A stretch of 64,000 bases of DNA from Candidatus Peregrinibacteria bacterium. GTDB lineage: Bacteria > Patescibacteriota > Gracilibacteria > UM-FILTER-43-11. The DNA lies in assembly GCA_016932505.1 (NCBI GenBank), contig JAFGCT010000028.1, positions 2,404 to 66,403 of the forward strand, written 5' to 3'. Under the pieces are notes generated by a model. The model saw only the letters and a list, made by a program, of their open reading frames with translations, had not been told where the DNA came from and did not search any database. Positions within the stretch are counted from its first letter, which is position 1; every line of letters starts with the position of its first letter. This document shows positions 1,985-63,725 of the stretch, in pieces. A program made the position numbers and the translations under genes.

Positions 1985-1993
1985 CTAATTCAG

Positions 1994-2080
1994 GATTATT
2001 GAGATGATTAAGATTATTGAGATGATTAAGAATTACTTATAACGACACTCCCAATAATCGCAATAATCACAATAATCCCA
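1994..2080. repeat. inverted arrays of the 9-mer gattattgN (left arm 4 units, right arm 3 reverse-complement units)
   Basis: gattattgagatgattaa occurs twice in tandem (1994-2011, 2012-2029). cccaataatcgcaataatcacaataatccca (2050-2080) is the reverse-complement array. Confidence 0.85.
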
Positions 2081-2087
2081 CAAAATT

Positions 2088-2426
2088 ATGGCAATAGACA
2101 TTCCAAAACAATCAGGCGAAAATAAACAGAATGCTGAAAAAGCTAATTCTCAGGCTAATGTTCAAGCAAAATCCGGAGCACAAGAAACCGTAAGCAGTAA
2201 CGATGAATTCCAGAGAAGATGGATACAGCAACAGGAAGCTCAACGTGAGAATCAAAAAAGGCTTGCTCAGCAGGGGGCAATAAAGAATGCAAAAGACAGA
2301 CAATCTGCTCAGCGAACCTCCACTTCTGTACCAAAGAAAAAATTTATGAAGGGAATGGCAAAATATCTTATTCCTTCAATAGCAACAGGTAGTGGAATAG
2401 TCGGAATACTGTTTGGACTCAATTAA
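2088..2426 (+). CDS. small tail-anchored membrane protein, hypothetical
   Basis: ATG ORF with a polar Q/A/K-rich N-part and a single C-terminal hydrophobic helix (YLIPSIATGSGIVGILFGL). Confidence 0.55.
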   Translation: MAIDIPKQSGENKQNAEKANSQANVQAKSGAQETVSSNDEFQRRWIQQQEAQRENQKRLAQQGAIKNAKDRQSAQRTSTSVPKKKFMKGMAKYLIPSIATGSGIVGILFGLN

Positions 2427-2514
2427 TTTATTGATTCAAGATTCAAAACTCGAAGAACGAAGAAAATCATAAATCCTAATATCTAAATTCTAAAAATTTC
2501 AAAAATCAAAACCA

Positions 2515-4785
2515 ATGAAAACAATCTTCAAAAAACTCACAAAAGGAATAATAATCAGTTTACTGCTGATATTTACACTGAATCTGACTTCGTTTCAGAT
2601 AGGTGGAAATAGCCAAGAAAATAGAATACTTACTACAAGTGTGAACGCTGATGAGATTACAGATGCGGATTTAGGGATTGGAGCTGAAACAACTGATTCA
2701 AATGCCAATGTAGTAGACCAATACTTAGCCGAGCCTGCAGGAGATACTGGCACTACAACCAACGCTACAACCAGCACTGAAGGAACTGGAAGTGGAGGCG
2801 AACCTGATCTAAGTAATGCAACGCCAGCCGCTAATGCAGAAGCAGAGCAACCAGGAGAACCTTTTGATATTGAGGAATTTATGAAGAGTATTCAGAAGGG
2901 GGCGACTTATATTCACAGACTTTTTGCTCCTTTGGTGAATTTTTTCTCATTTAATATTGGTAATTTCCTAAGTAATGACCATATTTTTGGTGGAGCTATG
3001 GGGCTTATGCTGAAAAAAATATGGATAGTCAGCAGAAATCTCGTAAATATCGCTTTCGTACTGATCCTTCTTTTTCTTGCATTAAAAGAAATATTTTGGA
3101 TTAAGGAAGAAGGCGGAACGGACCTGAAGAAAAGTTTACTTACTTTTGTACTACTTTTAATTGCAGTGAATTTTTCGTGGCTTGTTACAAAAGTTGTTTT
3201 AGATGCGGCTAACATTGCCACAAATGTCGTGTTCGCAATTCCTATGGGTGTAAGTGGTGCGGGTGCGGAACTATTGCCGAAAGATTGTGATGTTCTGGAT
3301 TGTCAAAATGACGACAGTGCTGAGACTCAGGCAGAGTGTGGTGCTGCAGATAAATATGTATTAAAAGGTTCATGTTACCCTAGTAGTATTTTTGCTGCTA
3401 ACACGGGTGACTGGAAAAGCCCCGAATACCAATATCTAGAAAAAGATCAATGTACCGATTATGATAAGAAGTATCAAGGAAATCCGGACAGTGCATTTAA
3501 TCAGGATGGTAGTGTAAATCCGAATGCGAGCGCCGATAATAAAGAGCTTCAAAATAAATCAACTTTCTGCTGGGAAACAATGGATTTTGCGAAATATGAC
3601 CAAAATACTTCCGTTATATATCTAACATACGGCATGGCTAGAATCCAGAATATTACCGGAGCAACTTCCAGAAGCAATGCTCCCGTTCAGGTTTCTATTG
3701 CAATATTGTTTTCACTGATTATTCAGGCTGCCTATACAATTGCTTTAATGGCGTTATTTATTGCCCTTGTTATTCGTATGGCCGTACTCTGGATATTTGT
3801 AGCATTTTCGCCATTTATGGTACTTATGTTATTTACTGATGTACTTGGTTCACTCGCGGAAAAAGCCAAAGGAACAGCGGATTTCTCCGGTTTCCTTAAA
3901 TGGGCTTTTGTTCCAGTTAAGGTAGCAGCTGTATTTACCATTTCATTCCTTATGGTTTCCGCTGGACAATCTATGGGAAGTACTGATGTAACAAATATAA
4001 ATACCTTTTCAGCAAGTGGAGCTAATACTACATTTAAAATATTTAATGTCGGTTCGTTATTTATGAATATGGGTGGAATTGAACAATTTATATGGCTCCT
4101 TATTACTCTTGTGGTTCTTTGGATAGGGGTATTTGCAGTTCTTGGAGATATGCCGATTATTAAATCTGTTACCGATAAGATGAAAGAATACGGTACTTCA
4201 ACTGCCGGACTTATTGCAAAAGCTCCATACTGGGCACCTATTATGCCTATGGTAGACCCAAGTACCGGTAAATTTAAATTTGGTTCTTATGCTAAGGAAT
4301 ATTCCGGACTTGATTTAAGAAAGGTATTAACAGAAGCTAAAGAAAAGGCAACTGGTGATAATTTGAAGAGTAAGGCGGAAAAGGTGACTGAACCAGTGCA
4401 AAAAGAAATTAATGATTTAGTTAAGACTGGAAATACCGAAAAAGCTTATTCTAAATTCCTTGAATCTATCGGCGGAGACAAATATTCAGTAAATAAAGAA
4501 GGTATTGAAAAACTTACTAAATCAATGGATAAGCTTGATGCAGATACAAGACGTAAGTTAATTGCTTTCCATAAAGATCAAATGAAGGGTATTGAAACGA
4601 AGAAACCTTCCACCGCTGATGTTCAGGCAGATGAAGCAGCCAGAATAGCTGAACGCGATAAGCAAAGTGGTTCAACACCTACAACGCCATCAGGAGGAAC
4701 AACTTCATCAGGAGGAACAACTTCATCAGGAGGAACAACTTCTACTGCCCAGGAAAATCCACCAGCAGATAATACCGGACAATAG
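2515..4785 (+). CDS. polytopic membrane protein, possible VirB6/TrbL-like channel component
   Basis: N-terminal signal/TM segment and at least 6 long hydrophobic segments. Cys-rich extracytoplasmic loop. Low-complexity C-terminus. Lies next to a T4CP-like ATPase. The family assignment is an inference from topology and context only. Confidence 0.7.
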   Translation: MKTIFKKLTKGIIISLLLIFTLNLTSFQIGGNSQENRILTTSVNADEITDADLGIGAETTDSNANVVDQYLAEPAGDTGTTTNATTSTEGTGSGGEPDLSNATPAANAEAEQPGEPFDIEEFMKSIQKGATYIHRLFAPLVNFFSFNIGNFLSNDHIFGGAMGLMLKKIWIVSRNLVNIAFVLILLFLALKEIFWIKEEGGTDLKKSLLTFVLLLIAVNFSWLVTKVVLDAANIATNVVFAIPMGVSGAGAELLPKDCDVLDCQNDDSAETQAECGAADKYVLKGSCYPSSIFAANTGDWKSPEYQYLEKDQCTDYDKKYQGNPDSAFNQDGSVNPNASADNKELQNKSTFCWETMDFAKYDQNTSVIYLTYGMARIQNITGATSRSNAPVQVSIAILFSLIIQAAYTIALMALFIALVIRMAVLWIFVAFSPFMVLMLFTDVLGSLAEKAKGTADFSGFLKWAFVPVKVAAVFTISFLMVSAGQSMGSTDVTNINTFSASGANTTFKIFNVGSLFMNMGGIEQFIWLLITLVVLWIGVFAVLGDMPIIKSVTDKMKEYGTSTAGLIAKAPYWAPIMPMVDPSTGKFKFGSYAKEYSGLDLRKVLTEAKEKATGDNLKSKAEKVTEPVQKEINDLVKTGNTEKAYSKFLESIGGDKYSVNKEGIEKLTKSMDKLDADTRRKLIAFHKDQMKGIETKKPSTADVQADEAARIAERDKQSGSTPTTPSGGTTSSGGTTSSGGTTSTAQENPPADNTGQ
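4690..4743 (+). repeat. 18-nt tandem repeat x3 inside the CDS (encodes SGGTTS x3)
   Basis: tcaggaggaacaacttca at 4690, 4708 and 4726 (the last copy ends in t). Confidence 0.9.
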
Positions 4786-4811: not shown

Positions 4812-4846
4812 GTAGGGGCGTCCCGCTTAGCGGGATCCCTACTTTT
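4812..4846 (+). terminator. intrinsic terminator after the 756-aa gene
   Basis: Nested hairpin gtaggg-gcg-tcccgc-tta-gcggga-t-ccctac followed by tttt. Confidence 0.7.
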
Positions 4847-4994
4847 GTCTGAACTGTGATTTATGCGATTTAAATGATTTTCTTATGATTAAAAACAATC
4901 CATAAACTTTATTTCATAGAGTTAGTAATATGAAATATTGATACGGATAAAAATCATTATCAATCAGTACAATCAAAAATATCACAGTTCAGAC
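4847..4994. repeat. 14-bp perfect inverted repeat bracketing a ~120-nt AT-rich spacer between convergent genes
   Basis: gtctgaactgtgat (4847-4860) pairs with atcacagttcagac (4981-4994). The right arm abuts or overlaps the stop codon of the 852-aa gene. Confidence 0.7.
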
Positions 4995-7926: not shown

Positions 7927-7961
7927 AAAACCCCACACCGTTTAACGGAATGGGGGTTTTT
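7925..7961. terminator. bidirectional intrinsic terminator between convergent genes
   Basis: aaaaaacccca...tgggggttttt: a hairpin flanked by an A-run and a T-run. Confidence 0.6.
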
Positions 7962-11575: not shown

Positions 11576-11616
11576 AAAAAACCCTTACCAAAAGGGGGTG
11601 GAAGGCAAGGGTTTTT
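11576..11616 (+). terminator. intrinsic terminator
   Basis: cccttacc...ggcaaggg stem (one mismatch) followed by ttttt. Confidence 0.55.
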
Positions 11617-11700: not shown

Positions 11701-11762
11701 AGTCAATTGGAAGTCAATTGGAAATATGATATCGTTATTTCGTTATTTCGTTATTTCGTTAT
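11701..11762. repeat. tandem 11-mer agtcaattgga x2 followed by 8-mer cgttattt x3.7
   Basis: Read directly from the sequence. The 11-mer recurs in reverse complement at 62288-62340. Confidence 0.85.
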
Positions 11763-11771: not shown

Positions 11772-12599
11772 ATGATTGGTATATTCGATTCAGGTTTTGG
11801 CGGGCTTACAGTAATGAAGGAATACTTAAAAAAGTATCCTGAGTTTGATTATATGTATTTAGGAGATCAGGCAAATATGCCTTATGGAAGTCATTCTAAA
11901 GAAAGGTTGAACAAATTAGTTGTTCAGAATGTTGATTTTTTGGTTAATAAAGGATGTAAACTCATTATTATTGCCTGTAACACCGCTTCAGCGGATGCAC
12001 TTAGGCATGTTCAGAATATATATAAAGGTAATCCTACTATACTTGGCGTTTTGGTTCCTGCGGTAGAGAATTCCTTAAAAGAAACAAGGTTTGGTAATAT
12101 TGGTGTTATTGGTACTCGCGGAACAATCAATAGCAATGCCTATAAACGAGAAATTGAGAAATATGAAAATGACTTATATAAACCCACTGACAAACGGGCT
12201 AGAGAATCTGTAAAACTATATCAGCAAGCTTGTCCGCTATTAGTGCCCTTAGTAGAAGAGGGATTAATTAAAGCAACGGTAACCCGAATGATTTTAAAGA
12301 ACTACCTTAGACCGCTTAAAAACGCTCACATAGATACTTTAATACTTGGATGTACTCACTATCCCCTACTTCAAAAAGAAATTACTAGAATAATGGGTAA
12401 AAACTGCAAGATTATTTCTTCAGCACAGGCGGCTACTTATGCCATAGGCAGTTACTTTGAAAATCACCCAGATGTTCTGAATTTAATTACAAGGAATGGA
12501 AAACGCACCTATTATACAACAGACTGCCCAGAGAGATTTGCAGATTTAGGAAAAAGGTTTTTAGGTGAAGTGATTGTAGGTGAAAAGGTGGAGATTTGA
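11772..12599 (+). CDS. murI: glutamate racemase
   Basis: IGIFDSGFGGLTV, IIACNTASA and LGCTHYP motifs, with both catalytic Cys contexts. Confidence 0.9.
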   Translation: MIGIFDSGFGGLTVMKEYLKKYPEFDYMYLGDQANMPYGSHSKERLNKLVVQNVDFLVNKGCKLIIIACNTASADALRHVQNIYKGNPTILGVLVPAVENSLKETRFGNIGVIGTRGTINSNAYKREIEKYENDLYKPTDKRARESVKLYQQACPLLVPLVEEGLIKATVTRMILKNYLRPLKNAHIDTLILGCTHYPLLQKEITRIMGKNCKIISSAQAATYAIGSYFENHPDVLNLITRNGKRTYYTTDCPERFADLGKRFLGEVIVGEKVEI

Positions 12600-12716
12600 G
12601 ATTTGTGATTTGTGATTTGTGATTTGAGACCTGCCTGCCGGTAGGCAAGGTTTGTGATTTGAGATTTGAGATTTGAGACCTGCCTGCCGGTAGGCAAGGT
12701 TTGTGATTTGAGATTT
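12593..12716. repeat. heptamer gatttg(t/a) array containing a 49-bp direct duplication, each copy carrying a GC-rich hairpin core
   Basis: gatttga/gatttgt units start at 12593. gagacctgcctgccggtaggcaaggtttgtgatttgagattt is present at 12626-12667 and 12675-12716. The cores cctgcctgccggtaggcaagg are at 12630-12650 and 12679-12699. Confidence 0.9.
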
Positions 12717-12741
12717 GTCATTTATAAAATAAATCAGTTTT

Positions 12742-14358: not shown

Positions 14359-15888
14359 TTATAGTGGCTTATAAACTGGCTTAGATTGGCTTTTTTTGTT
14401 GAATAGAATTTGTGCCATAACCGCACGATTAATTGGCTGCTTTAAATCAATGGAATTAATTGAATCAATATACCCATTTTCATAAGCATAAATTATATAA
14501 TTTTCTTCAAGCGAAGGCCATCCGCTAAAAGCACCTAAGGCATTTATCAAAAATTCTTTTGTAGACTCCTGAGTTGGGATAATATAAATATTTTTTAACC
14601 CTAAATAATAAGCAGCTTTAAATAAAATATAATTTTCACTATTTCTTGGAATGTACCTAAAATAGATGTCTTTGTCATTTTCAAAATTATTTAGATTTAC
14701 ACCAAAATATGAAAATAAAATTGATACTACTTCTTCATTGCTTAAAATTTTATCAGGGAAAATATAATTATCTTCAGCAAGTAAAACACCACTTTTTTGT
14801 AAATAGCTCATTGCCGGAAAAGCCCAGTGTTCGGAGGGCAGATCTTCATAAGAAGCCATTTCTACTTCCTCTTGTATGTTATTTGTATTTCCATCTAAAT
14901 ATAAATAACCGTAATACGATACTATGAATATTCCTATCACAATTCCATAACGGAAAAGGTTTTTTAGATAACTGTTTAAAAATGCCTTACTTGACCTTCC
15001 TACTGCAACCAGACCGACTTTTCTATATATTAAGTCTTTATATACTACCCATAATGAACCCACTCCTATGAATATGGAAATAAGATAATCAGATATTATA
15101 ATTACCGGCTTTGCCAGGAGCAACATTCCGATAATGTAAGTAGGTATAAATACGTAAAGAAAAGTTTTCAGGAATGAGCCAGCCTTACCTGACAACCTTA
15201 AAAACCCTTTATACTCCCCTGCTGTATAAAAATTTATTAGTAAAAGTCCAAGGCTTATAATATAAAGAGTTATTGAGTCCTGAGCACTTACTCCTTTTAC
15301 AAAACCCATACTCGCACCGCTAATGGAAACAAAAGCGATTAGCACAATTATGGGGAAGAAGTAAATATTCAGAATATTTAAAAAATTGAAGTAATTATTT
15401 AAAAAAGATTTTTGCTTCTGCATTACTGGTTGTTTTGCCCAATCTTCCAGCTTTTTAATAGTCTCTGAATCTTTGTTTAAATCAAAAATATGTAATGTTA
15501 TATATGTTGTTGCAGAAATTCCTCCAATTATTTGTAAGATATGTTCAGAAATAATATTACTATTGTATAAAAAAATACATAGAAGGAATAATACCAGAAG
15601 AAAATATGACATAAGCCAATATAATGCTTTTACATTGTTTATCCTTTCTATAATTACCTCATCATACATGCTCTCATTATTTTCACTTAAAACATTTTCA
15701 CTTTTTGTATTAAATATATATTTACCCGTACCCCATATAAAAAGGAATATAAAAAATAAAATACATAAACCCAAAATTCCGCCAAAATGATAGGACAATA
15801 TAAGGAGGAATACACTAAATAATACTACGATATAATTATCGAAAAATGAGCAAGCCTTTTTGTATTGTTGAACAATATTTTTATTCAT
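14359..15888 (-). CDS. polytopic membrane protein with C-terminal SLH-like segment
   Basis: About 10 hydrophobic segments. YEDLPSEHWAFPAMSYLQKSGVL resembles an SLH repeat. Confidence 0.6.
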   Translation of the reverse strand: MNKNIVQQYKKACSFFDNYIVVLFSVFLLILSYHFGGILGLCILFFIFLFIWGTGKYIFNTKSENVLSENNESMYDEVIIERINNVKALYWLMSYFLLVLFLLCIFLYNSNIISEHILQIIGGISATTYITLHIFDLNKDSETIKKLEDWAKQPVMQKQKSFLNNYFNFLNILNIYFFPIIVLIAFVSISGASMGFVKGVSAQDSITLYIISLGLLLINFYTAGEYKGFLRLSGKAGSFLKTFLYVFIPTYIIGMLLLAKPVIIISDYLISIFIGVGSLWVVYKDLIYRKVGLVAVGRSSKAFLNSYLKNLFRYGIVIGIFIVSYYGYLYLDGNTNNIQEEVEMASYEDLPSEHWAFPAMSYLQKSGVLLAEDNYIFPDKILSNEEVVSILFSYFGVNLNNFENDKDIYFRYIPRNSENYILFKAAYYLGLKNIYIIPTQESTKEFLINALGAFSGWPSLEENYIIYAYENGYIDSINSIDLKQPINRAVMAQILFNKKSQSKPVYKPL

Positions 15889-16402
15889 TGATTTGCATCT
15901 TCTTTATGCGGTATTCTCTTATTTGTGCAAGTATTAATATTATAAGAAAAATGTATGCGTAATCCGCGATTGCCTTTGCCTGCATATCTTCTTTTAGTAT
16001 TAAAAAAATCAAACTATAACAAAGTAGCACTACTGCAAACAATGCAGATATACGACTATCGAGAACATAAATAAATGAAAAAAGAAAGTAAGCCCAGGGC
16101 AGAATTAATAACAAAGGAAGTTCCTTAAACCAAATAAAAAGTAATCCTACTATAATACCTATAATAAGAATAACAAATAATTTTGGTGCTTTATAATTTT
16201 TTAGCAGATAATCCACAAATACCTTCCTCTTAATTCTATTTATCACATAAGGGAGTAGTAAAAGAAGGATAAAAGAGAATAGATAAACCAATGAGTTATT
16301 ATAAAAATTTCCTCCGGCAAGAATGCCGACTACCGACTTAATCAAAAACACTACAACTGCAATACCTAAGATGATTTTTATAAAACTATTCATATTTAAC
16401 AA
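15881..16402 (-). CDS. small polytopic membrane protein
   Basis: Five hydrophobic segments. Overlaps the downstream gene by 8 nt, which is operon-style packing. Confidence 0.55.
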   Translation of the reverse strand: MLNMNSFIKIILGIAVVVFLIKSVVGILAGGNFYNNSLVYLFSFILLLLLPYVINRIKRKVFVDYLLKNYKAPKLFVILIIGIIVGLLFIWFKELPLLLILPWAYFLFSFIYVLDSRISALFAVVLLCYSLIFLILKEDMQAKAIADYAYIFLIILILAQIREYRIKKMQINE

Positions 16403-16608
16403 CGAGATGACGAGATGACGAAATTACGAAATTACGATACAACACCCTTTGGAAATTTACAATTTCTAATTACTAATTTCTAATTAAATCCCAATTAAAC
16501 AATTACTGAATTTCCAATGTATTAATTTGGCATTGGACATTGGTCATTCATTAGAAATTAGAAATTGTAAATTAGAAATTATTCTCCTATACTCTGTACC
16601 GCATAATT
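16403..16608. repeat. divergent intergenic region composed almost entirely of short tandem/inverted repeat families
   Basis: cgagatga x2 and cgaaatta x2. ttacaatttctaattactaatttctaatt versus attagaaattagaaattgtaaattagaaatt (inverted). ttggcattggacattggtcatt is the reverse complement of the tgtccaa family seen at 7595-7615. Confidence 0.85.
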
Positions 16609-36516: not shown

Positions 36517-37537
36517 GGGTTTCTTTTGATGGGCTAATTGATGGGCTTATTGATGGACTTATTGATGTTACTTTCAATTGCCCTTCAATTGCCCTTCCAT
36601 CAGCCCCTCCATTAGTTATTACCTCCTTAATAATATAAACTTTATCTTTAGAACTGTTATAATAAGTTTTACTAATCATATCCGCAAGAATTCCCCCTAT
36701 GAACATAGCGAAACCTGCAAAGAACAAGAACATGGTAAGAACTGTAAAAGAGGTGTCAGATAAATCTATTTTACCAAAAATTTTCAAATACAAAGCCCAC
36801 ATTCCACTTGCCACACCTATAAACATCATTAGTATTCCTGCTGTACCAAGTAAATGAAGTGGACGATTTGCGAATTTTTTCCAAAACCAAACAGAAATCA
36901 TATCCAAAAAACCTTTTATTATACGGCTTGCGTTATATTTTGTCTTTCCATGAATTCTTGGATGATGAGTTACTTCTAACTCACCTGTTTTAAAACCTTT
37001 CATCTTTAAAATCGCAACAATAAAGCGATGCATTTCTCCAAATAAATCCACGGTATCAAAACATTCACGTCGATATGCTTTTAATGTACATCCTGAGTCA
37101 TGAATATCATCTTTTATAAGAATATCTCTTAAAAACTTAGCACGCTTTGAAACAAATCGTTTTAAAAAGGGGTCCTTTCTATCTTTTCTCCAACCTGAAA
37201 CTACGTCTAAATCATCCGCTTTCATTTTTACAAGTAGACGAGGGATGTCAGATGGGTCGTTCTGAAGATCTCCATCCATTGTTACGATAATCTTACCGAC
37301 GGATGCTTTAATTCCGGCATCCATTGCAGCTGTTTGACCGCAGTTTTTTCTAAAGCGAATTATTTTAACTGGATTTAATGTCTTTAATTGTTCAAGAGTT
37401 CCATCGTCCGAACCATCATCCACAAAAATAATCTCAAATGGCCTGTTGAACTGTTTACATACATCTAAAATACGCCTGTGAAGCTCTGCCACATTATCTT
37501 TTTCGTTGTAAACTGGGATTACTATTGAAAGATCCAT
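36455..37537 (-). CDS. polyprenyl-phosphate glycosyltransferase (GT2, GtrB/ArnC/DPM1-like) with repeat-encoded C-terminal extension
   Basis: LSIVIPVYNEKDNV...IIFVDDGSDDGT...DGDLQNDP, then two C-terminal TM helices. The last ~47 codons run through a 12-mer repeat array and overlap the cysQ start by 62 nt. Confidence 0.8.
   Translation of the reverse strand: MDLSIVIPVYNEKDNVAELHRRILDVCKQFNRPFEIIFVDDGSDDGTLEQLKTLNPVKIIRFRKNCGQTAAMDAGIKASVGKIIVTMDGDLQNDPSDIPRLLVKMKADDLDVVSGWRKDRKDPFLKRFVSKRAKFLRDILIKDDIHDSGCTLKAYRRECFDTVDLFGEMHRFIVAILKMKGFKTGELEVTHHPRIHGKTKYNASRIIKGFLDMISVWFWKKFANRPLHLLGTAGILMMFIGVASGMWALYLKIFGKIDLSDTSFTVLTMFLFFAGFAMFIGGILADMISKTYYNSSKDKVYIIKEVITNGGADGRAIEGQLKVTSISPSISPSISPSKETHAHSSHSTNQEGRERDTQSL
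36517..36612. repeat. 11-12-mer arrays (ttgatgggctaa-type x4, tcaattgccct x2) lying inside the GT2 ORF tail
   Basis: Read directly from the sequence. Translated on the minus strand they give SISPSISPSISPS. Confidence 0.85.
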
Positions 37538-37589
37538 TTTGTAATAATTAGCGGAATATAGATTACAATGAAATTGAGTGAAAAGCAAA

Positions 37590-40916: not shown

Positions 40917-40926
40917 ATTAAATTAT

Positions 40927-40989
40927 CGTTATGCGTTATGCGTTATGCGTTATGCGAAGTGCGCAGAACGCAAATCGCAAAGCGAAATA
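40927..40989. repeat. nine consecutive heptamers phase-locked on a leading CG
   Basis: cgttatg x4, then cgaagtg, cgcagaa, cgcaaat, cgcaaag, cgaaata. Confidence 0.85.
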
Positions 40990-40991
40990 AA

Positions 40992-41930
40992 TTATATCTT
41001 TTTAAGGAATTTTTGAAAGTCAGTTTTCACTATTCTATGATTCTGAGTACCTGCCCTGGATACCGCTTTTGACGCAATCCATGCGCCTATATTGGCGGAC
41101 TGTTCGATTGAATATCCGTTTACGATTCCATACATCAACCCAGAACGATATGCATCACCACAACCTGTTGGGTCAACAACGTTTTTAGTTTTGACTATCG
41201 GGACATCAACAACGGTAGCACCTCCACTTTTCCATATTTTTGAACCACTTTCACCGTATGTAATTATTAAATAATCAACATTAGAAAGTGCTTCAGGCAG
41301 CCCAAATCCTGTTTTTTCCTGAATCATATCCCACTCGTAATCATTACAGATTAAAATATAAGCATTTTTGATGAATGCTTTCATGTCTTTTGCAGAAAAA
41401 CCAGGAATCGCTTGGCCTGGATCTGCGATAAATTTGATTCCGTTTTTTCGGCATTCATCTGCATATTGAAGCATTGCACCTATATCGTTTGGAGCGATTA
41501 TTGCTAAATCACTTTGCGATGTGAGTTGTGCGATGTGCGAAATTTTAGTCTTACTCGCCTCACTCATAGCCCCCATATAGAATGAAGTGATTTGGTTATC
41601 ATCCATATCTGTCATTATTGTAGCATGAGCAGTGAGTTTGGTTTTGGACTTATAAAGATAATCACAATCAATTTTGTGCTTTTTTAAATGTTTTATATAA
41701 TCTCTAGCATCATCACCAATCGAACCTAAAAGAATTGGTTTTTCACCCATTAAGGCTAAGCTGTAAGCAATATTTCCCCCAGTTCCACCATAATTTATGG
41801 TCATTTTTTCAACAGTAAAAGCAACATTCAACTTGTGAACTTTTTCTGGCAAAATATGATTTGCAAAACGGTCATGAAAAACTGATATGCGGTCTATTGC
41901 TATCGAGCCTGTGACTAATAAATTTTTCAT
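40992..41930 (-). CDS. PfkB-family carbohydrate/nucleoside kinase (adenosine kinase suggested by context)
   Basis: The GGTGGN region and DPTGCGDAYRSG are the PfkB signatures. The gene lies upstream of ahcY. Confidence 0.8.
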   Translation of the reverse strand: MKNLLVTGSIAIDRISVFHDRFANHILPEKVHKLNVAFTVEKMTINYGGTGGNIAYSLALMGEKPILLGSIGDDARDYIKHLKKHKIDCDYLYKSKTKLTAHATIMTDMDDNQITSFYMGAMSEASKTKISHIAQLTSQSDLAIIAPNDIGAMLQYADECRKNGIKFIADPGQAIPGFSAKDMKAFIKNAYILICNDYEWDMIQEKTGFGLPEALSNVDYLIITYGESGSKIWKSGGATVVDVPIVKTKNVVDPTGCGDAYRSGLMYGIVNGYSIEQSANIGAWIASKAVSRAGTQNHRIVKTDFQKFLKKI

Positions 41931-45709: not shown

Positions 45710-45823
45710 GATGTGTTTTTTTATTTTATGTGATTATTCTACTACAAAAAATTTTATATTACAAAATTACAAAATTAATTTGTGATTGGTTTTATTGTAG
45801 TATTAACAATCATCATATAAAAT

Positions 45824-45858
45824 AATCTTGTAATAACTAATCTTGTAATCTTGTAATA
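45824..45858. repeat. aatcttgtaat 11-mer units (x2.7) directly upstream of trmD
   Basis: The same unit, or its reverse complement attacaagatt, occurs at 59946-59956, 61055-61100 and 61216-61257. Confidence 0.85.
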
Positions 45859-46509: not shown

Positions 46510-46573
46510 TTTAATTTGTGATTTAAAATTTGAGATTTGAGAATGAAATCAAAATTAAAAAATCACAAATCAC
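46508..46573. repeat. gatttg-family heptamers with inverted aaatcac arm
   Basis: tttgtgattt...tttgagatttgag ... aaatcacaaatcac. Confidence 0.75.
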
Positions 46574-50225: not shown

Positions 50226-50317
50226 TTGTGTTGATTGTTGTTTGTAGATCGTTTTTTGAACTATACTTGGCAAACAACTAACAACAAAGAGCTAACAACA
50301 ATTTTAATCAAATTTTT
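50226..50317. repeat. inverted ttgttg / caacaa heptamer-type arrays
   Basis: ttgtgttgattgttgtttgtag ... caaacaactaacaacaaagagctaacaaca. Confidence 0.75.
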
Positions 50318-52189
50318 ATGCAAGACCCAAACCAACACCCACCTCAACACCCAAAATTCAAACCACCAAAAAGGAATAATAGTTTTATGTATGTCCTTAT
50401 TTTCGCTTTGATTCTTACAATTATTTATTACGCGACTGGGCCAAAAAATGTTAATGAAGATACGGCTCTTACCGAAATTCCGATTAGTCAATTGGTTCAG
50501 GAATACAGAGACGGACAGTATTCAGCTATTGAGGTTAAAAATAGTAAAATATACGCGACTAATAATGAGCAAAAAGAATTTTTAGCTTATCGTCCGGAAG
50601 GAGAAAGTATTAAAGACCTTGGACTAAATGAGCAGGGCAACCCAACACCCATTACAATTATAAGCACAGAGGCAAGCGCCTTTTGGCTTAATGTTCTTTC
50701 AAGCTGGTTACCTATAATTCTATTTATTGCGCTTATTATTTTTATGGCTAAACAGCTTGGAAAAGGGGCGAACAGCGCATTTTCATTTGGCAAATCTCAA
50801 GCAAAAGTCTATTCAAAAAATGGAAAACACAAAACAACTTTTAAAGATGTTGCAGGAATGGAAGAGTCTAAAGATGATTTAGTTGAAGTTGTGGACTTTT
50901 TAAAACACCCTAAAAAATACACTAAGATTGGAGCTAAAATTCCTCGAGGAGTATTACTCGTTGGAGCTCCTGGAACAGGTAAAACATTACTTGCTCGAGC
51001 TGTTGCCGGTGAGGCAGGTGTCCCCTTCTTCAGTATTTCCGGTTCTGAATTTGTGGAAATGTTTGTCGGTGTAGGTGCTAGTCGTGTAAGAGATTTATTC
51101 CAAAAGGCAAAGAAAAATGCGCCATGCATAATCTTTATAGATGAAATTGATGCGGTTGGTCGTCAGCGTGGTTTTGGAATGGGTGGCGGACACGACGAAA
51201 GAGAGCAGACGTTGAATCAGATCCTTACAGAAATGGATGGTTTTGAGAATGAAACAAATGTAATTGTAATGGCTGCAACCAATAGGCCAGATGTACTGGA
51301 TGCCGCTTTAATGCGACCAGGACGTTTTGACAGACGTGTAATTATTGATATGCCCAATCTTGTCGACCGTGAGGCAATTCTAAAAGTTCACGCACGTAAC
51401 AAACCACTAGATAAAAGTGTAGATTTAAAGAGTGTAGCTAAACAGACACCTGGGTTTTCCGGTGCAGATATTGAAAATCTTATTAACGAAGCAGCTATTC
51501 TGGCTGCAAAAAATAATAGGAATAAAATAATGCATTCTGATTTGGAGGCTTCTATTGAAAAAGTCGGGCTTGGTCCTGAAAAGAAATCACGCAGACTTTC
51601 CGATGAAGAAAAGAAAATCACCGCTTATCATGAGGTCGGTCACGCACTTGTGGGTAAATTACTACCTGGTTGTGACCCCGTACACAAGGTTTCTATTATC
51701 AGTAGAGGCATGGCTCTTGGTGTTACTTGGTTTTTACCGGAAGAAGATAAGCATCTAAAATCAGTTTCTAAATTCAAAGATGAATTATGCTCATTACTTG
51801 GAGGTTATATGTCCGAAAAACTTACCTTTGGTGAAGTAACCACAGGAGCGAGTAGCGACTTACAACGTGCAACCGAGATTGCAAGAAGCATGGTGATGGA
51901 TTATGGAATGAGTGAAGACCTTGGACCTGTAATTTTTGGTCAAAAATCAATGGCCAGATTCTTAGGTGCAGACCTTGGCTCAAAACCAAATTATAGTGAG
52001 GAAGTAGCAGCAAAAATTGATAATGCTGTTTCCAAAATTCTTACTGATGCTCAGGAAAAAACTGAAAACCTTCTTATTAAAAATAAAGCGCTTCTTAAAG
52101 AGATTGCGGAATCACTACTTAAGAAAGAGGTTTTGGATAAAAAAGAGTTTGATAGTTTTTTTCCTAAAGAAAAGACGAAGAAGAAATAA
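50318..52189 (+). CDS. ftsH: ATP-dependent zinc metalloprotease FtsH
   Basis: [16 protein letters not shown], the SRH region and the HEVGHAL zinc site. The N-terminus ([18 protein letters not shown]) is encoded by a cacc/caa-type repetitive stretch. Confidence 0.95.
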
Positions 52190-52229
52190 TTTGTGATTTG
52201 TGATTTGTGATTTGTGATTTGTGATTTGT
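52188..52229. repeat. pure direct heptamer array: aatttgt + gatttgt x5
   Basis: Read directly from the sequence. It starts at the ftsH stop codon. Confidence 0.95.
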
Positions 52230-54319: not shown

Positions 54320-54422
54320 AATTTGAAATTTGTGAATTGAGATTTGTGATTCTTTTTTGTTTATTGTATTTTTGTCATGTCCTATAAATAAATTCACAAA
54401 TCAAAAATCACAAATCAAAAAT
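54320..54422. repeat. inverted gatttgt-family arms
   Basis: aatttgaaatttgtgaattgagatttgtgattc (54320-54352) versus aaattcacaaatcaaaaatcacaaatcaaaaat (54389-54422). Confidence 0.85.
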
Positions 54423-55902: not shown

Positions 55903-55995
55903 GGGATTATTAGAATTATTGAGATTATTGGGATGATTGAGATGTTTATAGCATTTCCCAATAATCATAATAATCCTAATAATCTCAATAATCAC
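55903..55995. repeat. inverted arrays of the gattattgN 9-mer (same family as 1994-2080)
   Basis: gggattattagaattattgagattattgggatgattgagatg ... cccaataatcataataatcctaataatctcaataatcac. Confidence 0.9.
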
Positions 55996-56005
55996 AACAA
56001 AATAA

Positions 56006-56752
56006 ATGAACAAAAATATAAAAACAGAAGGAATAATTCTTAGACGCATTAACCTAAATGATGCGGATCAAATTGTAACTGTACTTACAAAAGATATGGG
56101 TAAAATTGCGTGTATGGCAAAAGGTAGTAGGAGGACAAAAAGTAAATTCTGTGGAAGACTGGAAATGTTTTATCAGGTTAAAGTCGCTGCTTTTCAGGGT
56201 AGAAACTTGGGCTACTTGGATGAAGCTGAACCGATTATTCATAGAAAATTTCACGATGCATGTCTACGCTCAAAAAGCATTCTTTTCTATATTGCAGAAC
56301 TAACAAACAGGCTTATTCAGGATGAACAGCAGATTGATGGTGTTTATGAATTAATGCTTAATGCACTGGATCAAATTGAAAAGAACAATGAAAAAAGTGA
56401 TTTGGTTTTATATGCCTATACAATTAAATTACTTGGAATGCTTGGGTTTATGGCACCGTGGGATAGGTGCGCAAGAAGTAACGTATCACTTAATCTTTCC
56501 GAACCATTATTTTTAAGCCTTCATGATGGAAGCGTAATTCGAAGCGGTTATAATACTTCAATAGACCCACGCCTAACTCCCCCACTTATTAAATGGGTAA
56601 ACTATATGCAAAAGGCAAATTTTTCAGATATTGTTAACGTTGCCCCTAACAAAGGTGAAAAAGTTCAGGTTTGGTTTTTGATAAAAACAATGCTGGAAAA
56701 TATTTTGAGTAGCCCAATTAAATCAGAGGAATTTTTGAGTATGGTGGGGTAA
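56006..56752 (+). CDS. recO: DNA repair protein RecO
   Basis: EGIILRRINLNDADQIVTVLTKDMGKIACMAKGSRRTKSKF (N-terminal OB-fold region). Confidence 0.8.
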   Translation: MNKNIKTEGIILRRINLNDADQIVTVLTKDMGKIACMAKGSRRTKSKFCGRLEMFYQVKVAAFQGRNLGYLDEAEPIIHRKFHDACLRSKSILFYIAELTNRLIQDEQQIDGVYELMLNALDQIEKNNEKSDLVLYAYTIKLLGMLGFMAPWDRCARSNVSLNLSEPLFLSLHDGSVIRSGYNTSIDPRLTPPLIKWVNYMQKANFSDIVNVAPNKGEKVQVWFLIKTMLENILSSPIKSEEFLSMVG

Positions 56753-56816
56753 TATTTAGCATTTATCATTTAACATTTGATATAGCTTATAACATTTAAT
56801 TTTTAATTTCTATTTT

Positions 56817-61051: not shown

Positions 61052-61262
61052 AAATTATTACAAGATTAATTATTACAAGATTAGTTATTACAAGATTATT
61101 TTATATTATGATTGGTGATACTACAATTGAAACCGATTATTTCCTTCCGAAGGCGCGGTGCCGGCACCGCGCCTTCGGAAGGTTTGTTTATTTGATGTAT
61201 AACCAATCACAAATAAATCTTGTAATCTACTAATAAGCGAAGTGTTAATCTTGTAATAATCC
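61052..61262. repeat. composite element: attacaagatt x3 arm, a central perfect 40-nt GC-rich palindrome, and an inverted aatcttgtaat x2 arm
   Basis: Left arm 61055-61100. Palindrome ccttccgaaggcgcggtgccggcaccgcgccttcggaagg at 61143-61182. Right-arm units at 61216-61226 and 61247-61257; the latter encodes the last codons and stop of aroD. Confidence 0.9.
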
Positions 61263-61952
61263 CCAAGCCTCTTTCAACTCCCCCACTGTTAATTGACCCG
61301 GTGCGGATGATTTGGATTTGGATATTGGCGCAAACATAATTGTACCACCAAGGGTAGGAGTAAGAATTCTGGAAAGGGCGCCTTTTTTACCCATAGCAAT
61401 GATTATATGCGGGATTTTTTCGGCTTGTAGATGCTTTGCCAATGAAATTGCCTGAATAGTATCTGCGTAAGTTTTTGCCATAACCGAAATCTTGACGATA
61501 CACGCCCCGGCGCGCAGGTCTGCGCCCTTTTTCTTCATTTCTTTAGCTTTTTTTAAAAGGACGGATAGTGAAGGTGTTTTTTTGAAGTTATGATATGAAA
61601 GAATGATTTTTGATTTTTGATTTGTGAATTGTGATTTTAAATCAGAAATCCCAAATCTCAAATCACAAATGTCCAAAGGTAAATCTATATATTCGGCTCC
61701 GTTCTTAGATGATTCAGTAAGTAATTTTAAGACTTCTTTATCACTTCCTTTAAAGCATCCCATTTCGTTAGGTTTTTTACATACACAAATTACCGGTAAG
61801 GGCTTGTTTTTAAGCAATTCAGCTATATCCAAATCCTTAATATAATCCAGCCAGATTTCCGCCATGTCGGCATGTTTTTTTGCCAAGACCATAGCCTTTT
61901 TTGCCTCTTTCATTGTTTTTGCCTGAATTGGAATACATAATTTAATTTTCAT
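61245..61952 (-). CDS. aroD: type I 3-dehydroquinate dehydratase
   Basis: LCIPI..., AEIWLDYI, ILSYHNFKKTP, KISVMAK (Schiff-base Lys context), IIAMGKKGALSRIL, SAPGQL. Confidence 0.85.
   Translation of the reverse strand: MKIKLCIPIQAKTMKEAKKAMVLAKKHADMAEIWLDYIKDLDIAELLKNKPLPVICVCKKPNEMGCFKGSDKEVLKLLTESSKNGAEYIDLPLDICDLRFGISDLKSQFTNQKSKIILSYHNFKKTPSLSVLLKKAKEMKKKGADLRAGACIVKISVMAKTYADTIQAISLAKHLQAEKIPHIIIAMGKKGALSRILTPTLGGTIMFAPISKSKSSAPGQLTVGELKEAWGLLQD
61606..61672. repeat. intragenic inverted heptamer array (gatttgt family) inside aroD
   Basis: gattttt gattttt gatttgt gaattgt gatttta | aatc agaaatc ccaaatc tcaaatc acaaatg. It is translated in frame as ...ICDLRFGISDLKSQFTNQKSK.... Confidence 0.85.
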
Positions 61953-62042
61953 TTATCATTTTTCAATTATCATTTAATGAGAACAATATTAATATTAAAT
62001 GTTAAATGACAATTATTAAATGACAAATGTGTTTTTATTCAC

Positions 62043-62071
62043 TTGACAAAATACCGATTATACGATACAAT
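62043..62071 (+). promoter_or_regulatory. near-consensus sigma70-like promoter
   Basis: ttgaca (62043-62048), a 17-nt spacer, then tacaat (62066-62071). Confidence 0.55.
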
Positions 62072-62287
62072 TCACATCCAAACATCACGTTTGGGTGCCT
62101 GTTATTTGGGCACTATTGATCATTTAAAACATTGGAAGTAAGGGAAATCTTTACAATATTCCGCTTAAGTAAGCCTGTTCTGATTTTTTACCTATGGTAA
62201 GAAAAACCGGAAACGGGCGCTTGTGAATATATAAATACTTCCCTACGCAATTACTAAGTTGATTGGCAATACCAAGTAAAATACCCC

Positions 62288-62340
62288 CCATTGACTTCCA
62301 ATTGACTTCCGTAGACCTAGTCAATAGGACGTCAATCGGA
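62288..62340. repeat. inverted arrays of the attgacttcc / gtcaat unit (reverse complement of the 11701-11722 family)
   Basis: ccattgacttccaattgacttcc-gtagacc-tagtcaataggacgtcaatcgg. Confidence 0.85.
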
Positions 62341-62451
62341 AATTTATAGGGAAAAAAGTATCTTATTTAGTATTGCCATCAACAAATAAACAAACCTGCT
62401 TGCGTGCAAGTGGGAACTGACCCGGAAACGGGAAAGGAAAGGAATTTAGTC

Positions 62452-63390
62452 ATGAAAAAATGTAACAACAAAACAGGAGGAGGAGCCATGTTTACGAAAC
62501 TCTCAACCGCGGTCTTTTTGGCCGCAATGTTCTTCGCGTTCAGCAACTCTGCCAGCGCCGCCTACTGCGACCGCTACGAAGGAGGCGAGGCAGACAAATG
62601 CGGTAGCGGAATGTCGCAAGCCAAAGCCCTCCCGGGCTACGGCGCTATGACCTCAGCCACAGCCAAAGCCCCCTGCGAAGCGGCGAGAGCCAACGCGCTG
62701 GACCAATGTACCATGAAAGCCGGCGGGTCTGATGCCTTTATTGGCGGCTGCAAGAAAACCGTCAAAGCCTACAAGTGCCCCGATGGCGGACCTGTTACAG
62801 TTTCCGCAGTCTGTGGAAACGGGAAGTGCGAAAAGGGCGAGACCAAGAAGAATTGCCCGAAAGACTGCGGTTCGACACCTCCCCCAGTGGTGAGGAAGGG
62901 CAAAAAGTGCGGAAACGGGGTATGTGACGCAAGCGAGGATTTCGCCACCTGCCCGGAGGACTGCCACTGCGGTGACGGCACGTGCGACCCCACGATCGAC
63001 GAAACGTTCTGCACCTGTGCAGACGACTGCAAAGATTGTCCCGAAGGCTGTGAGGGGGCCGAGCCCCCGCCGTGCAGCGACTGCATGGAAGAAGCATTGA
63101 AGAAGTTCTGGGAAGAACACGTTCAGTGCCAGGACAGCACGAGTACCTATCATACGGTTCTCAAGACCATGGGATGCGAGGGCTTCTTCAAAGCCAACAA
63201 GCTGACTTTCTACTCACCCCCGAAAGTCGATATGGAAGCCATCGCCAAAGCAAGTGCCGGCAACGGCTCCATCCCCAGATGGTTCGTCATCTTCGTCACA
63301 GTCGCTCTTTCCCTCAGCTTCCTCTGCCTGCTCATCCTCGTCTTCCGTAAAAAGAAGAACCCGAACACCACCGGCGGTAGCAACCGGTAG
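62452..63390 (+). CDS. GC-rich gene: secreted Cys-rich repeat protein with C-terminal TM anchor (start 62452 or 62488)
   Basis: RBS-like aaggaaagga / ggaggagg upstream of the two ATGs. Signal peptide FTKLSTAVFLAAMFFAFSNSASA. Three CG(N/D)GxC...C(P)xDC modules. C-terminal WFVIFVTVALSLSFLCLLILVF-RKKK. Hand GC count is 37/60 (62521-62580) against 17/60 (62101-62160). Confidence 0.7.
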   Translation: MKKCNNKTGGGAMFTKLSTAVFLAAMFFAFSNSASAAYCDRYEGGEADKCGSGMSQAKALPGYGAMTSATAKAPCEAARANALDQCTMKAGGSDAFIGGCKKTVKAYKCPDGGPVTVSAVCGNGKCEKGETKKNCPKDCGSTPPPVVRKGKKCGNGVCDASEDFATCPEDCHCGDGTCDPTIDETFCTCADDCKDCPEGCEGAEPPPCSDCMEEALKKFWEEHVQCQDSTSTYHTVLKTMGCEGFFKANKLTFYSPPKVDMEAIAKASAGNGSIPRWFVIFVTVALSLSFLCLLILVFRKKKNPNTTGGSNR

Positions 63391-63482
63391 TAATTGCGTT
63401 TCCGCGCTTTAAACGCGGATACGTTCAATGTTCTAATGTTAACGTGGGGCAAGGCCAAGTGCCTTCGCCCCCTCTAACCCCT

Positions 63483-63521
63483 CAGGGATCATCGCTTTAC
63501 GCTTTGGTCCCTGTTTTTTTT
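63483..63521 (+). terminator. intrinsic terminator after the GC-rich gene
   Basis: caggga...tccctg stem followed by 8 T. Confidence 0.7.
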
Positions 63522-63530
63522 GTCTGGATT

Positions 63531-63692
63531 GCGATTAACGATTAACGATTTACGATTTACGTTGTACGGGGGGGGTTGTGATGGGTGGATTGGAATTACA
63601 TCAAATACACATTTATCAGTAGAGACGCGATTAATCGTGTCTCTACGGTATTAAATCGTTAATCGTACAACGTTAATCGTAAATCGTATAAC
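63531..63692. repeat. composite element: CG-anchored heptamer arm, a central hairpin, and an inverted arm
   Basis: gcgattaacgattaacgatttacgatttacgttgtacg (63531-63568). gtagagac-gcgattaatcgt-gtctctac (63619-63646). attaaatcgttaatcgtacaacgttaatcgtaaatcgtataac (63651-63692). Confidence 0.9.
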
Positions 63693-63725
63693 AAAAAACC
63701 CCTCACATTCCTGCAGGGGGTTTTT
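63693..63725. terminator. bidirectional intrinsic terminator
   Basis: aaaaaacccct...agggggttttt. Confidence 0.6.

Follow-up and report, generated by a model that had tools for sequence, protein, structure and literature searches.

Tandem arrays in the spacers of the window

The 64-kb stretch of contig JAFGCT010000028.1 analysed here (the window throughout) is densely coding in the standard bacterial code, with a G+C content of about 35% that falls to 28–31% between 14 and 34 kb. Many of its intergenic spacers contain short tandem repeats, often faced by an array of the reverse-complementary unit, and these arrays are the subject of this report. The window FtsH is 77% identical to a protein from a Candidatus Peregrinibacteria metagenome-assembled genome, its further best matches being other Patescibacteria, and the relatives of the window FtsX are labelled Peregrinibacteria or Patescibacteria. 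Sequence comparison places the host as a low-GC, Peregrinibacteria-like bacterium of the Candidate Phyla Radiation (CPR); a cyanobacterial origin, which the heptamers had initially brought to mind, is refuted by these FtsH and FtsX matches.

Tandem Repeats Finder (TRF) returned 92 rows for the whole window, nearly all of them at gene boundaries. Using a hand-curated gene list and array periods of 6–24, we found that arrays covered 1283 of 7170 intergenic bases (17.9%) versus 933 of 56,830 coding bases (1.6%), an enrichment of about tenfold. Shuffling the spacers 100 times with dinucleotides preserved gave a coverage of 132 ± 55 bases (about 1.8%), with a maximum of 293. The arrays, first noticed in a first-pass annotation made from the sequence alone, are thus real, and their content is well above that of AT-rich shuffled sequence, the comparison which that annotation had itself proposed. 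Its count of at least 20 array spacers proved slightly generous: among the 41 spacers of at least 35 nt, 24 contain a TRF array and 17 have an array share of at least 25%, so that the number lies between 17 and 24 depending on the threshold. Reverse-complement arrays face each other in 8 spacers by a strict test (two consecutive reverse-complement units) and in 4 further spacers by eye and folding (1985, 40917, 50226 and 52691), about 12 in total. The arrangement described as mostly inverted is thus seen in about half of the array spacers as a whole and in about 70% of those that are strongly repetitive.

RNAfold gave z < −2 relative to shuffled sequence in 21 of 39 window spacers, in agreement with the earlier proposal that many spacers can fold into long imperfect hairpins. 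When folded, the array hairpins reached z-scores of about −6 to −9 (1985, −6.0; 55900, −7.1; 61052, −8.7; 63391, −7.7), with −4.6 at 52691. The GC-rich hairpins described at the centre of some elements were found at 61143–61182, 63621–63644 and 12630–12650/12679–12699. At least 10 unit families, 7–12 nt in length, occur within the 64 kb. Also as first described, unit families recur at distant loci: GATTATTGN at 1994 and 55905; ATTTGTG at 12591, 46514, 52189, 54323 and 61604; ATTACAAGATT at 45758 and 61053; and AGTCAATTGGA at 11701 and 62290. A GATT/AATC core is present in 17 of 36 window arrays, with 4.0 ± 1.9 expected. The most similar pair of elements, at 1985 and 55900, can be aligned at 82% through the repeat units only, and their loops differ.

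Stringent arrays number 22 in the window, or 0.34 per kb, compared with 0.058 per kb in generic loci, and elements occur at a density of roughly one per 3 kb. The low-GC block at 14000–34000 (28–31%) has very short spacers and hardly any arrays. An independent Logan contig (run SRR13394437), the only Logan assembly with the same DNA, is identical to the window across 8.9 kb, and similar arrays are present in finished isolate sequences; the arrays are therefore not an assembly artefact. The elements of the window are listed below, where L numbers denote loci from other genomes and IVP denotes the 23S_rRNA_IVP family (PF05635).

1994..2079: inverted 9-mers, GATTATTGA/GATGATTAA x4.2 facing CAATAATCN x3; fills the spacer between 275..1984 and 2088..2426 (z −6.0)
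11701..11762: direct arrays, AGTCAATTGGA x2.1 and TCGTTATT x3.9; stop 10 nt short of the ATG at 11772
12591..12723: GATTTGW heptads interleaved with two copies of a GC hairpin, CCTGCCTGCCGGTAGGCAAGG, as a 49-nt unit x2.5; upstream of the terminator at 12743–12776 (z −10.4)
16403..16437: octamers CGAGATGA/CGAAATTA; abuts the start of 15881..16402 (minus strand); same family as the arms around the L286 IVP gene
16454..16580: inverted heptads, AATTTCT ... ATTAGAA, in a divergent spacer
36526..36597: 12-mer TTGATGGGCTTA x3.5 and 11-mer TTCAATTGCCC x2.3, between two minus-strand genes; the upstream open reading frame (ORF) reads through
40923..40984: CGTTATG x5 facing CGCAAAK; related TTGCG-type units in the orthologous spacer of L286
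41936..42024: two direct 12-mer arrays, TCGTATTGGGGA x3.9 and CCATTCGAGCAC x2.7, 5 nt from the ATG of 40992..41930 (minus strand)
45758..45857: ATTACAAA(ATT) array facing a TAATCTTG(TAAT) array; the right arm abuts the trmD ATG
46514..46573: ATTTGAG x4.1 facing AAATCAC units
50226..50301: left arm of TTGTKGW type facing AACAACT x3.9
52189..52229: ATTTGTG x5.9, a perfect direct array beginning at the FtsH stop codon
52694..52768: 12-mers AGCAAATTGATG x2.8 and ACAATCGGCTCC x3.4, with partial complementarity (z −4.6)
54323..54422: inverted heptads, ATTTGTG ... AAAATCA, between the TPR and CTP_transf genes
55905..55997: inverted 9-mers, GATTATTGA x4.3 ... AATAATCAT x3.9, between FtsX and RecO (z −7.1)
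56750..56809: direct heptads, TAACATT x4.1 and TTTAATT x2.1
61053..61240: AATTATTACAAGATT x3.1 facing AATCTTGTAAT around a perfect 18-bp GC hairpin (61143–61182); abuts the ychF start codon (z −8.7)
61604..61685: heptad hairpin, TGATTTT x5 / AAATCAC x4.6, in frame within the aroD coding sequence
61953..62029: inverted heptads, ATTTATC/ATCATTT ... AATGTTA/AAATGAC
62290..62340: inverted 11-mers, ATTGACTTCCA x1.9 ... GTCAATAGGAC x1.9; family as at 11701
63532..63688: inverted heptads, CGATTAA/CGATTTA x4.3 ... TAAATCG x5.3, around the hairpin at 63621–63644 and followed by the terminator at 63693–63725 (z −7.7)

A typical element starts 0–10 nt past a stop codon and ends 0–28 nt ahead of the next start codon, so that the hairpin covers the entire spacer. 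Array spacers lie between co-directional genes in 13 cases, convergent genes in 2 and divergent genes in 3. In both convergent spacers, the arrays are situated upstream of canonical A-tract/stem/T-tract terminators (12743–12776 and 63693–63725), which indicates that the arrays are transcribed and are not themselves terminators.

The elements have a fixed polarity, with a G+T-rich arm first and an A+C-rich arm second. In 11 of 13 window spacers, the arm following the stop codon is G+T-rich (mean 0.62), while A+C predominates and G is scarce in the 35 nt preceding the start codon (mean G+T 0.40), the G content of the pre-start arm being 0–14%. An inverted repeat reads alike from either strand, and the polarity therefore belongs to the element itself rather than reflecting which way it is transcribed. 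At 55905–55997, variant units in one arm have mirror-image counterparts in the other, as they do at 7919–8008 of L001.

The hairpin at 61604–61685 lies within the gene for a type I dehydroquinase (aroD). It is composed of the units GATTTGT, GATTTGA, GATTTGG, GATTTCT and GATTTAA followed by AATCACA, ATTCACA, AATCAAA and AATCAAA, and encodes ...DICDLRFGISDLKSQFTNQKSKII.... The L202 orthologue has the segment too, and in solved AroD structures its aligned counterpart is an ordinary variable stretch, only about 3 residues shorter. Array-like sequence seems to have overwritten coding DNA here. A glycosyltransferase ORF, 36455..37588 (minus strand), continues across the arrays of 12-mers and 11-mers (…SISPSISPSISPS…) and shares 60 nt with the next gene; probably the arrays lengthen the called ORF artificially, or else they give its protein a repeat tail. 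This matters for the annotation of CPR genomes, in which array spacers can be mistaken for extended ORFs and coding sequence can itself contain arrays.

Turnover in related genomes and association with IVP genes

Relatives were taken as contigs with an FtsX 58–87% identical to that of the window; no strain with more than 90% identity was present in the protein collection. L201, L202, L203 and L286 (38–42% GC) are as array-rich as the window or richer, with stringent arrays in L201–L203 at 0.57–1.04 per kb versus 0.058 in unrelated loci. When orthologous spacers were compared, as the first-pass annotation had suggested, arrays were found in the same spacers, often with different units and lengths. 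Between the TPR and CTP_transf genes, the hairpin is made of ATTTGTG in the window, GATTTCW in L201, CATTTAW in L202, GATTTGT/GAATTCT in L203 and the 9-mer GACTATTAG in L001, and the arms are complementary in all five genomes. The architecture persists while the unit sequence gets replaced, and the two arms evolve in concert.

Certain units are retained. ATTTGTG after FtsH is kept in the window and L286, which also have in common the ATTACAAGATT arm upstream of trmD; across genomes, this arm is conserved upstream of both trmD and ychF. A 41-nt segment of this arm, at 45819–45859 of the window, is 100% identical to L202 4968–5008, which lies in a non-orthologous spacer, although genes are only about 85% identical between the two. 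At least one unit family is therefore either copied between sites or constrained in sequence. L287 (44% GC) has the same string of genes with spacers of 2–15 nt and no arrays, and the elements are therefore dispensable. Particular lineages have gained or expanded the elements, which turn over rapidly.

In L202, inverted ATTACAAGATT.../...AATCTTGTAAT arrays enclose a 126-aa PF05635 gene (23S_rRNA_IVP; TIGR02436 "four helix bundle protein"). In L201 the same hairpin occurs between identical outer boundaries, CTTATTAC...GTAATAAG, which lie directly against the stop of ychF and the start of RNHCP, and its loop consists of an unrelated 110 nt in which neither blastn nor tblastn revealed a remnant of the IVP gene. 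L286 carries another IVP gene between inverted ACGAAATG octamers. Furthermore, loci chosen only for their ATTTGTG arrays included 7 IVP genes in 6 loci near a tandem array, most of them within about 200 nt of the ATTTGTG run.

We extended these observations to 80 IVP genes drawn from the genome collection regardless of repeats, 74 of which had both flanks available. A profile of all subfamilies was too divergent for scanning, and one subfamily was used. A tandem array was present within 220 nt of 69 of the 74 genes (63 upstream, 40 downstream), and the units were mostly heptads (GATTGCG, GAATGCG, GATTTAC, GATTTCG, GATTTTG and GATTTGT). The two flanks were mutually reverse-complementary at z > 4 in 42 of 74. 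Stringent arrays reached 1.65 per kb adjoining IVP genes, compared with 0.20 elsewhere in the same loci and 0.058 in generic loci. The order of the cassette is host stop codon, heptads, 20–40 nt, IVP ORF, reverse-complement heptads and next host gene. Co-orientation with the upstream neighbour was seen in 67 of 75 cases, and the IVP start lies a median of only 63 nt past the neighbour's stop, which leaves little room for a promoter of its own. The polarity matches that of the window: 61 of 64 upstream arrays are G+T-rich and 37 of 41 downstream arrays are A+C-rich.

The same anatomy is found on finished cyanobacterial plasmids of Gloeocapsa PCC 7428 (NC_019759, L284) and Planktothrix PCC 7805 (L285). 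On both, the array-flanked IVP gene sits inside a defence operon, in the order DUF1156, IVP, Swt1-HEPN in L284 and DISARM drmD, IVP, BREX pglX in L285. Array arms enclose IVP-family genes in at least 10 phyla, and we found no description of this association in the searchable literature. Its strength across phyla suggests that the arrays and the IVP cassettes may share a common nature resembling that of the intervening sequences (IVSs) of rRNA.

Heptad arrays themselves extend well beyond the lineage. An exact (ATTTGTG)x3 occurs at more than 119 places in the species-representative genome collection, where fewer than one would be expected by our own uniform-composition estimate; hosts among the matches listed include Acidobacteriota, Bacteroidota, Planctomycetota, Desulfobacterota, cyanobacteria and CPR. 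Among the same listed matches, (ATTTGTG)n is accompanied by a reverse-complement array downstream (within 250 nt) at 24 of 108 usable loci and by one upstream at 4. GATTNNN heptads also occur in Acidobacteriota and Planctomycetota of 60–70% GC, as compositional outliers. For the nonamer, (GATTATTGN)x3 gave 47 matches, none with a reverse-complement partner or a nearby IVP gene; judged by eye and not from called ORFs, many look like coding repeats of PNN type and the rest like direct intergenic arrays. Since these matches have no inverted partners, the 9-mer hairpins appear to be lineage-specific, and the 9–12-nt hairpins seem to be a local elaboration. Pattern matches for unit lengths in multiples of 3 were uninformative.

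The intergenic heptamer array class and its possible origin

The elements belong to the widespread class of intergenic heptamer (GATTNNN-type) arrays. This class is recognised by tandem 5–11-nt units above chance, a non-coding bias, convergent pairs, and spacers that are shared but variable (Mrazek 2007; Rehm 2015), and the window arrays show all four properties. In Xanthomonas, GGGAATC repeats occur at 186 sites, of which about 90% (89–93%) are intergenic, mostly between co-directional ORFs and close to the gene end (Rehm et al. 2015, PMC4692102). Each genome has 70–75 convergent inverted pairs. Xcc and Xac share the spacers that bear repeats, but the length and sequence of the repeats vary; the repeats are transcribed, and no function was found for them (PMC4692102). 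Read on the other strand or in another rotation, the Xanthomonas unit GGGAATC and the Nostoc unit GGGGATT (of the form GGGGA(T/C)T) become GATTCCC and GATTGGG, which are GATTNNN heptads like those of the window. Unlike them, the window units are AT-rich and cannot form G-quadruplexes, lengths of 7, 8, 9, 11 and 12 nt coexist, and elements occur roughly every 3 kb in a CPR host with about 35% GC. No IVP link is described in the Xanthomonas/Nostoc report (PMC4692102).

The kind of element is thus already known, the window providing an AT-rich, multi-period variant in a new host phylum. The first-pass annotation overlooked both this published class, with its convergent inverted pairs in Xanthomonas, and the link to 23S_rRNA_IVP genes. 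New here are the persistence of the architecture despite sequence turnover, the fixed polarity and the cross-phylum IVP association. Intergenic heptamer repeats have been on record since 1990 and are over-represented in many bacterial genomes. The window is an extreme case, with an element about every 3 kb of a streamlined CPR genome. Cyanobacterial short tandemly repeated repetitive (STRR) heptamers were reportedly described in Calothrix/Anabaena by Mazel et al. in 1990. Their units include CCCCAGT, TTGGTCA and CAACAGT. Like the window arrays, STRRs are tandem heptanucleotides dispersed in non-coding DNA; unlike them, they have other units, occur in heterocystous cyanobacteria rather than a CPR host, and are not defined by inverted pairing. 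The Calothrix heptanucleotides are cited in the Xanthomonas report (PMC4692102).

A second comparison is offered by the rRNA IVS. That of Coxiella burnetii has a 28-bp terminal stem with the S23p (IVP) ORF in its loop and is cleaved by RNase III within the stem; IVSs are sporadic and regarded as selfish (PMC4990558). The window elements share the layout of stem, optional PF05635 ORF and stem, together with the sporadic distribution, and their complementary flanks form stems of about 20–40 bp, as expected of an IVS-like cassette. They differ in that all lie between protein-coding genes and none in a 23S (or 16S) rRNA helix. The PF05635/TIGR02436 ORF in the loop, optional in IVSs, is absent from the window elements and present in relatives L202 and L286.

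We propose that the arrays are empty, IVS-like intergenic elements, self-folding, enlarged through slippage and template switching, and tolerated by the operons in which they lie, an explanation that we favour while putting it at somewhat under an even chance. Each element would comprise a short tandem array and its reverse complement, placed in the stop-to-start gap within one transcription unit. As "empty" hairpin cassettes, they would be selfish or nearly neutral insertions. The arrays would grow by replication slippage, while inverted duplication, or template switching inside the hairpin, would keep the arms complementary; such growth is consistent with arms that change in concert, with variant units mirrored from arm to arm and with arrays that are direct only. 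In the transcript, the stem would bring the upstream stop codon next to the downstream start codon. It would probably be cut by a double-strand RNase such as RNase III, whose cleavage is demonstrated for IVSs. The insertion would in this way be bypassed or excised, leaving operon expression neither broken nor uncoupled.

A broader version, which we consider possible but on balance unlikely, is that heptad-array hairpins are the non-autonomous, "empty" form of an unrecognised pan-bacterial class of selfish cassettes. The full form would carry a PF05635 (23S_rRNA_IVP / Avd-like) gene, and the cassettes would be of the rRNA-IVS kind, located between cistrons and needing read-through from the host. 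If true, the heptamer repeats of cyanobacteria, Xanthomonas, Beggiatoaceae, Bacteroidota, Acidobacteriota and CPR would have one origin, and the IVP family would gain a biological context, possibly as an array-binding or array-maintaining protein. The IVP link turns a descriptive curiosity into testable hypotheses, namely RNase III processing, binding of IVP to arrays, and gain or loss of ORFs in loops.

Several results weigh against the proposal that the elements are empty IVS-like hairpins. There is no IVP gene in the window by Pfam on small ORFs, a local HMM or tblastn, and the IVP sample represents mainly one subfamily (pattern ...TSVGANY). Among 57 co-directional spacers, folds were more stable in the sense than in the antisense direction in 28 versus 29 (p = 0.85), and G-U pairs were equally frequent in sense and antisense folds; this neutral result neither supports nor excludes selection on the transcript. 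About one third to half of the array spacers, those with direct arrays and no inverted partner, are left unexplained by a pure hairpin model, and three inverted elements separate divergent genes, so that neither transcript has to include both arms. We found no mobility mechanism, target-site duplication or transposase. Finally, the fixed polarity and the GATT core point to a sequence-specific constraint beyond hairpin formation. Since hairpins alone do not predict the polarity, the GATT core or the conserved ATTACAAGATT arm by start codons, an additional partner that reads the sequence is suggested; candidates are a single-stranded RNA binder with a heptad footprint (cold-shock protein, S1), an omega-type DNA binder, or the IVP protein itself.

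The first of these candidates leads to an alternative that we judge unlikely, in which the arrays are multimeric mRNA sites for an OB-fold single-strand binder (cold-shock protein or S1, about 7 nt per protein) that set downstream translation, the complementary arm acting as a switch that hides or exposes the leader. Heptads predominate, one arm is nearly always 0–28 nt from a start codon and G-poor (0–14% G), the polarity is fixed relative to any transcript, and many window starts have no Shine-Dalgarno sequence, all of which such a binder would accommodate. There is also a precedent in a further relative of the heptamer class: TAACTGA heptads of marine Beggiatoaceae, Cyanobacteria and Bacteroidetes occur in 2–6 (up to 43) copies a few nt upstream of starts, have a patchy distribution among phyla and are thought to act post-transcriptionally, with binding by cold-shock proteins, S1 or CsrA proposed (MacGregor 2015, PMC4679880). 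TAACTGA repeats have one unit and a single inverted case in 170, compared with the many units and frequent inverted pairs of the window. Against the OB-fold binder, 8-, 9-, 11- and 12-nt units coexist with heptads, the G+T-rich arm that would be the better ligand for a cold-shock protein is the one far from the start codon, and L287, with the same operon and no elements, shows that they are not required for expression.

It is decidedly unlikely, in our estimate, that the arrays are purely a mutational by-product of slippage-prone, AT-rich spacers in a small, repair-poor genome, with neither function nor identity as elements. Rapid unit turnover and an array-free relative would suit such an origin, as would the missing strand-specific signature and the occurrence of direct-only arrays, and heptamers might mirror a polymerase footprint (PMC4692102). 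Slippage of this kind would not, however, place the same GATTNNN heptads in Acidobacteriota and Planctomycetota of 60–70% GC, fix the polarity (24 versus 4), favour the GATT core (17 of 36 versus 4 expected) or tie the arrays tightly to one gene family, IVP. The array segment of 41 nt that is 100% identical at non-orthologous sites, with genes at about 85%, and the ATTACAAGATT arm conserved upstream of trmD and ychF likewise argue against it.

Sites in double-stranded DNA for a repeat-reading protein, either a ribbon-helix-helix protein like omega of pSM19035 or a nucleoid or partition protein, are in our view improbable. The operators of omega on inc18 plasmids consist of 7-bp WATCACW in direct and inverted runs, and omega binds runs of at least two heptads, whether direct or converging (PMC9499535). 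(ATTTGTG)n equals (AATCACA)n and so matches WATCACW exactly, but ATTTGTG is the only window family that does. The bias towards convergent polarity would be expected of an orientation-sensitive DNA binder, and the missing RNA strand bias fits a role at the DNA level. Set against this, omega operators are promoter operators or centromeres of Firmicutes plasmids read by one protein, whereas the arrays here lie mostly within operons, between stop and start, and not in promoter regions; promoter-like consensus sites in the window spacers are not enriched over shuffles; and no ribbon-helix-helix or omega-like gene was recognised in a Pfam scan of 10 small and 18 larger window ORFs, the remaining ORFs being unscanned. 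The original idea of protein-binding arrays survives to the extent that some binder is possible, but 10 or more unrelated families of 7–12-nt units in 64 kb are not readable by a single sequence-specific protein.

The long hairpins that form in the spacers, and a T-rich tail (+ strand) following the central GC hairpin at 61143–61182, might be taken to indicate intrinsic terminators or insulators between genes, as first suggested; we regard this as very improbable. Canonical terminators (7927–7961, 11576–11616, 12743–12776 and 63693–63725) are separate from the arrays, those at 12743–12776 and 63693–63725 lying downstream of them, the array stems are AT-rich and have no U-tract/T-tract, and most arrays separate co-directional, probably co-transcribed genes, which in L287 are 2–15 nt apart. 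Terminator-like sites stay near the level of shuffles (21 versus 15.2 ± 4.6, and 12 versus 10.4 ± 3.5).

Slippage-prone contingency (phase-variation) tracts, also proposed at first, are scarcely credible: perfect tandem arrays such as ATTTGTG x5.9 exist and vary in length and sequence between relatives, yet they lie outside coding frames and core promoter spacing, between the stop and next start of housekeeping genes (FtsH, HSP20, FtsX, RecO, SerRS), with an inverted pairing and an IVP link foreign to contingency loci, and Rehm et al. concluded likewise for Xanthomonas (PMC4692102).

The arrays have in common with repetitive extragenic palindromes (REP/BIME/REPIN), BOX, Correia elements and miniature inverted-repeat transposable elements (MITEs) that they are short, intergenic and hairpin-forming, and often co-transcribed. 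Those families have a fixed 20–150-nt consensus in many near-identical copies, a RAYT gene accompanying REPINs, and terminal inverted repeats together with target duplications marking MITEs, whereas each window element is a degenerate array with its own unit. The first-pass conclusion that the arrays are not REP/BIME, BOX, Correia or CRISPR repeats is borne out by their having neither a fixed consensus nor unique spacers. For REP/REPIN, no consensus is shared beyond the unit families, and no RAYT-type gene was seen in general scans of part of the window ORFs. MITEs were rejected, near-identical copies being absent (best pair 82%, through repeat units only) and no target duplications being seen. 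CRISPR arrays have 24–48-nt repeats with unique spacers of similar size, in contrast to the contiguous 7–12-nt units found here. A eukaryotic parallel is provided by the foldback (FB) transposons of Drosophila, which are mobile, kilobase-scale elements with long inverted arms of short tandem repeats, variable copy number and an optional internal gene. The arrays resemble them in their tandem-built inverted arms, variable copy number and optional gene, whereas a eukaryotic host, kilobase scale and demonstrated mobility set the FB elements apart.

Other features of the window and its relatives

The GC hairpin CCTGCCTGCCGG(N)AGGCAGG, present in the window at 12630–12650 and 12679–12699, is also found in L018, L061, L071, L093, L095, L128 and L194, which derive from unrelated CPR and Bacteroidota. 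Its 12-mer has 13 occurrences in about 3 Mb of loci, compared with about 0.4 expected (uniform-composition estimate). A T-run often comes next, and tandem arrays sometimes adjoin it; it may be a shared terminator-like or mobile hairpin. The palindrome TCCCGCTWAGCGGGA occurs in spacers of the lineage, at 4820–4836 in the window, at about 817 in L201 and at about 506, 3467, 4093 and 8026 in L202, and is a second, REP-like repeat family separate from the tandem arrays.

Tandem repeats also occur within coding sequence. A perfect 18-nt repeat, CATCAGGAGGAACAACTT x3.1, is located at 4688–4742 in the C-terminal end of a 756-aa ORF (2515..4785) with no Pfam match, and a hexamer array, ATAACC x8.7, lies at 14002–14056 within an SLH-domain gene. 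The block at 14000–34000 encodes PMT_2-type glycosyltransferases and sulfate-activation genes (CysN/CysC fusion).

The only Rfam match in the window, at gathering and permissive thresholds, was one tRNA. The region 62043–62403 holds the best sigma-70-like promoter of the window (TTGACA-17-TACAAT) and, after it, a leader of about 330 nt with higher G+C, ahead of the ORF 62404..63390, which has no Pfam match; this leader region has no match in Rfam. A comparable TTGACA promoter and leader (…ccaaacatNatgtttgggcg…) precede unannotated genes in L202 and L286. On the minus strand at 11582–11670, a strong promoter-like site with an extended −10 (11670–11642) is followed about 50 nt downstream by a terminator-like hairpin (11596–11582), and this unit could be a small RNA antisense to the spacer.

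Two long "spacers", 29269–29822 (554 nt) and 38962–39635 (674 nt), contain no ORF of 100 aa or more and no arrays. Two short ORFs without a Pfam match, of 79 and 89 aa, lie in the second; both regions may be pseudogenes or unannotated small genes. Motifs of HerA and of TrwB/TraG-type coupling proteins occur in an 852-aa protein encoded at 4994–7552, a hint that this CPR genome may encode a component of type IV secretion or conjugation.

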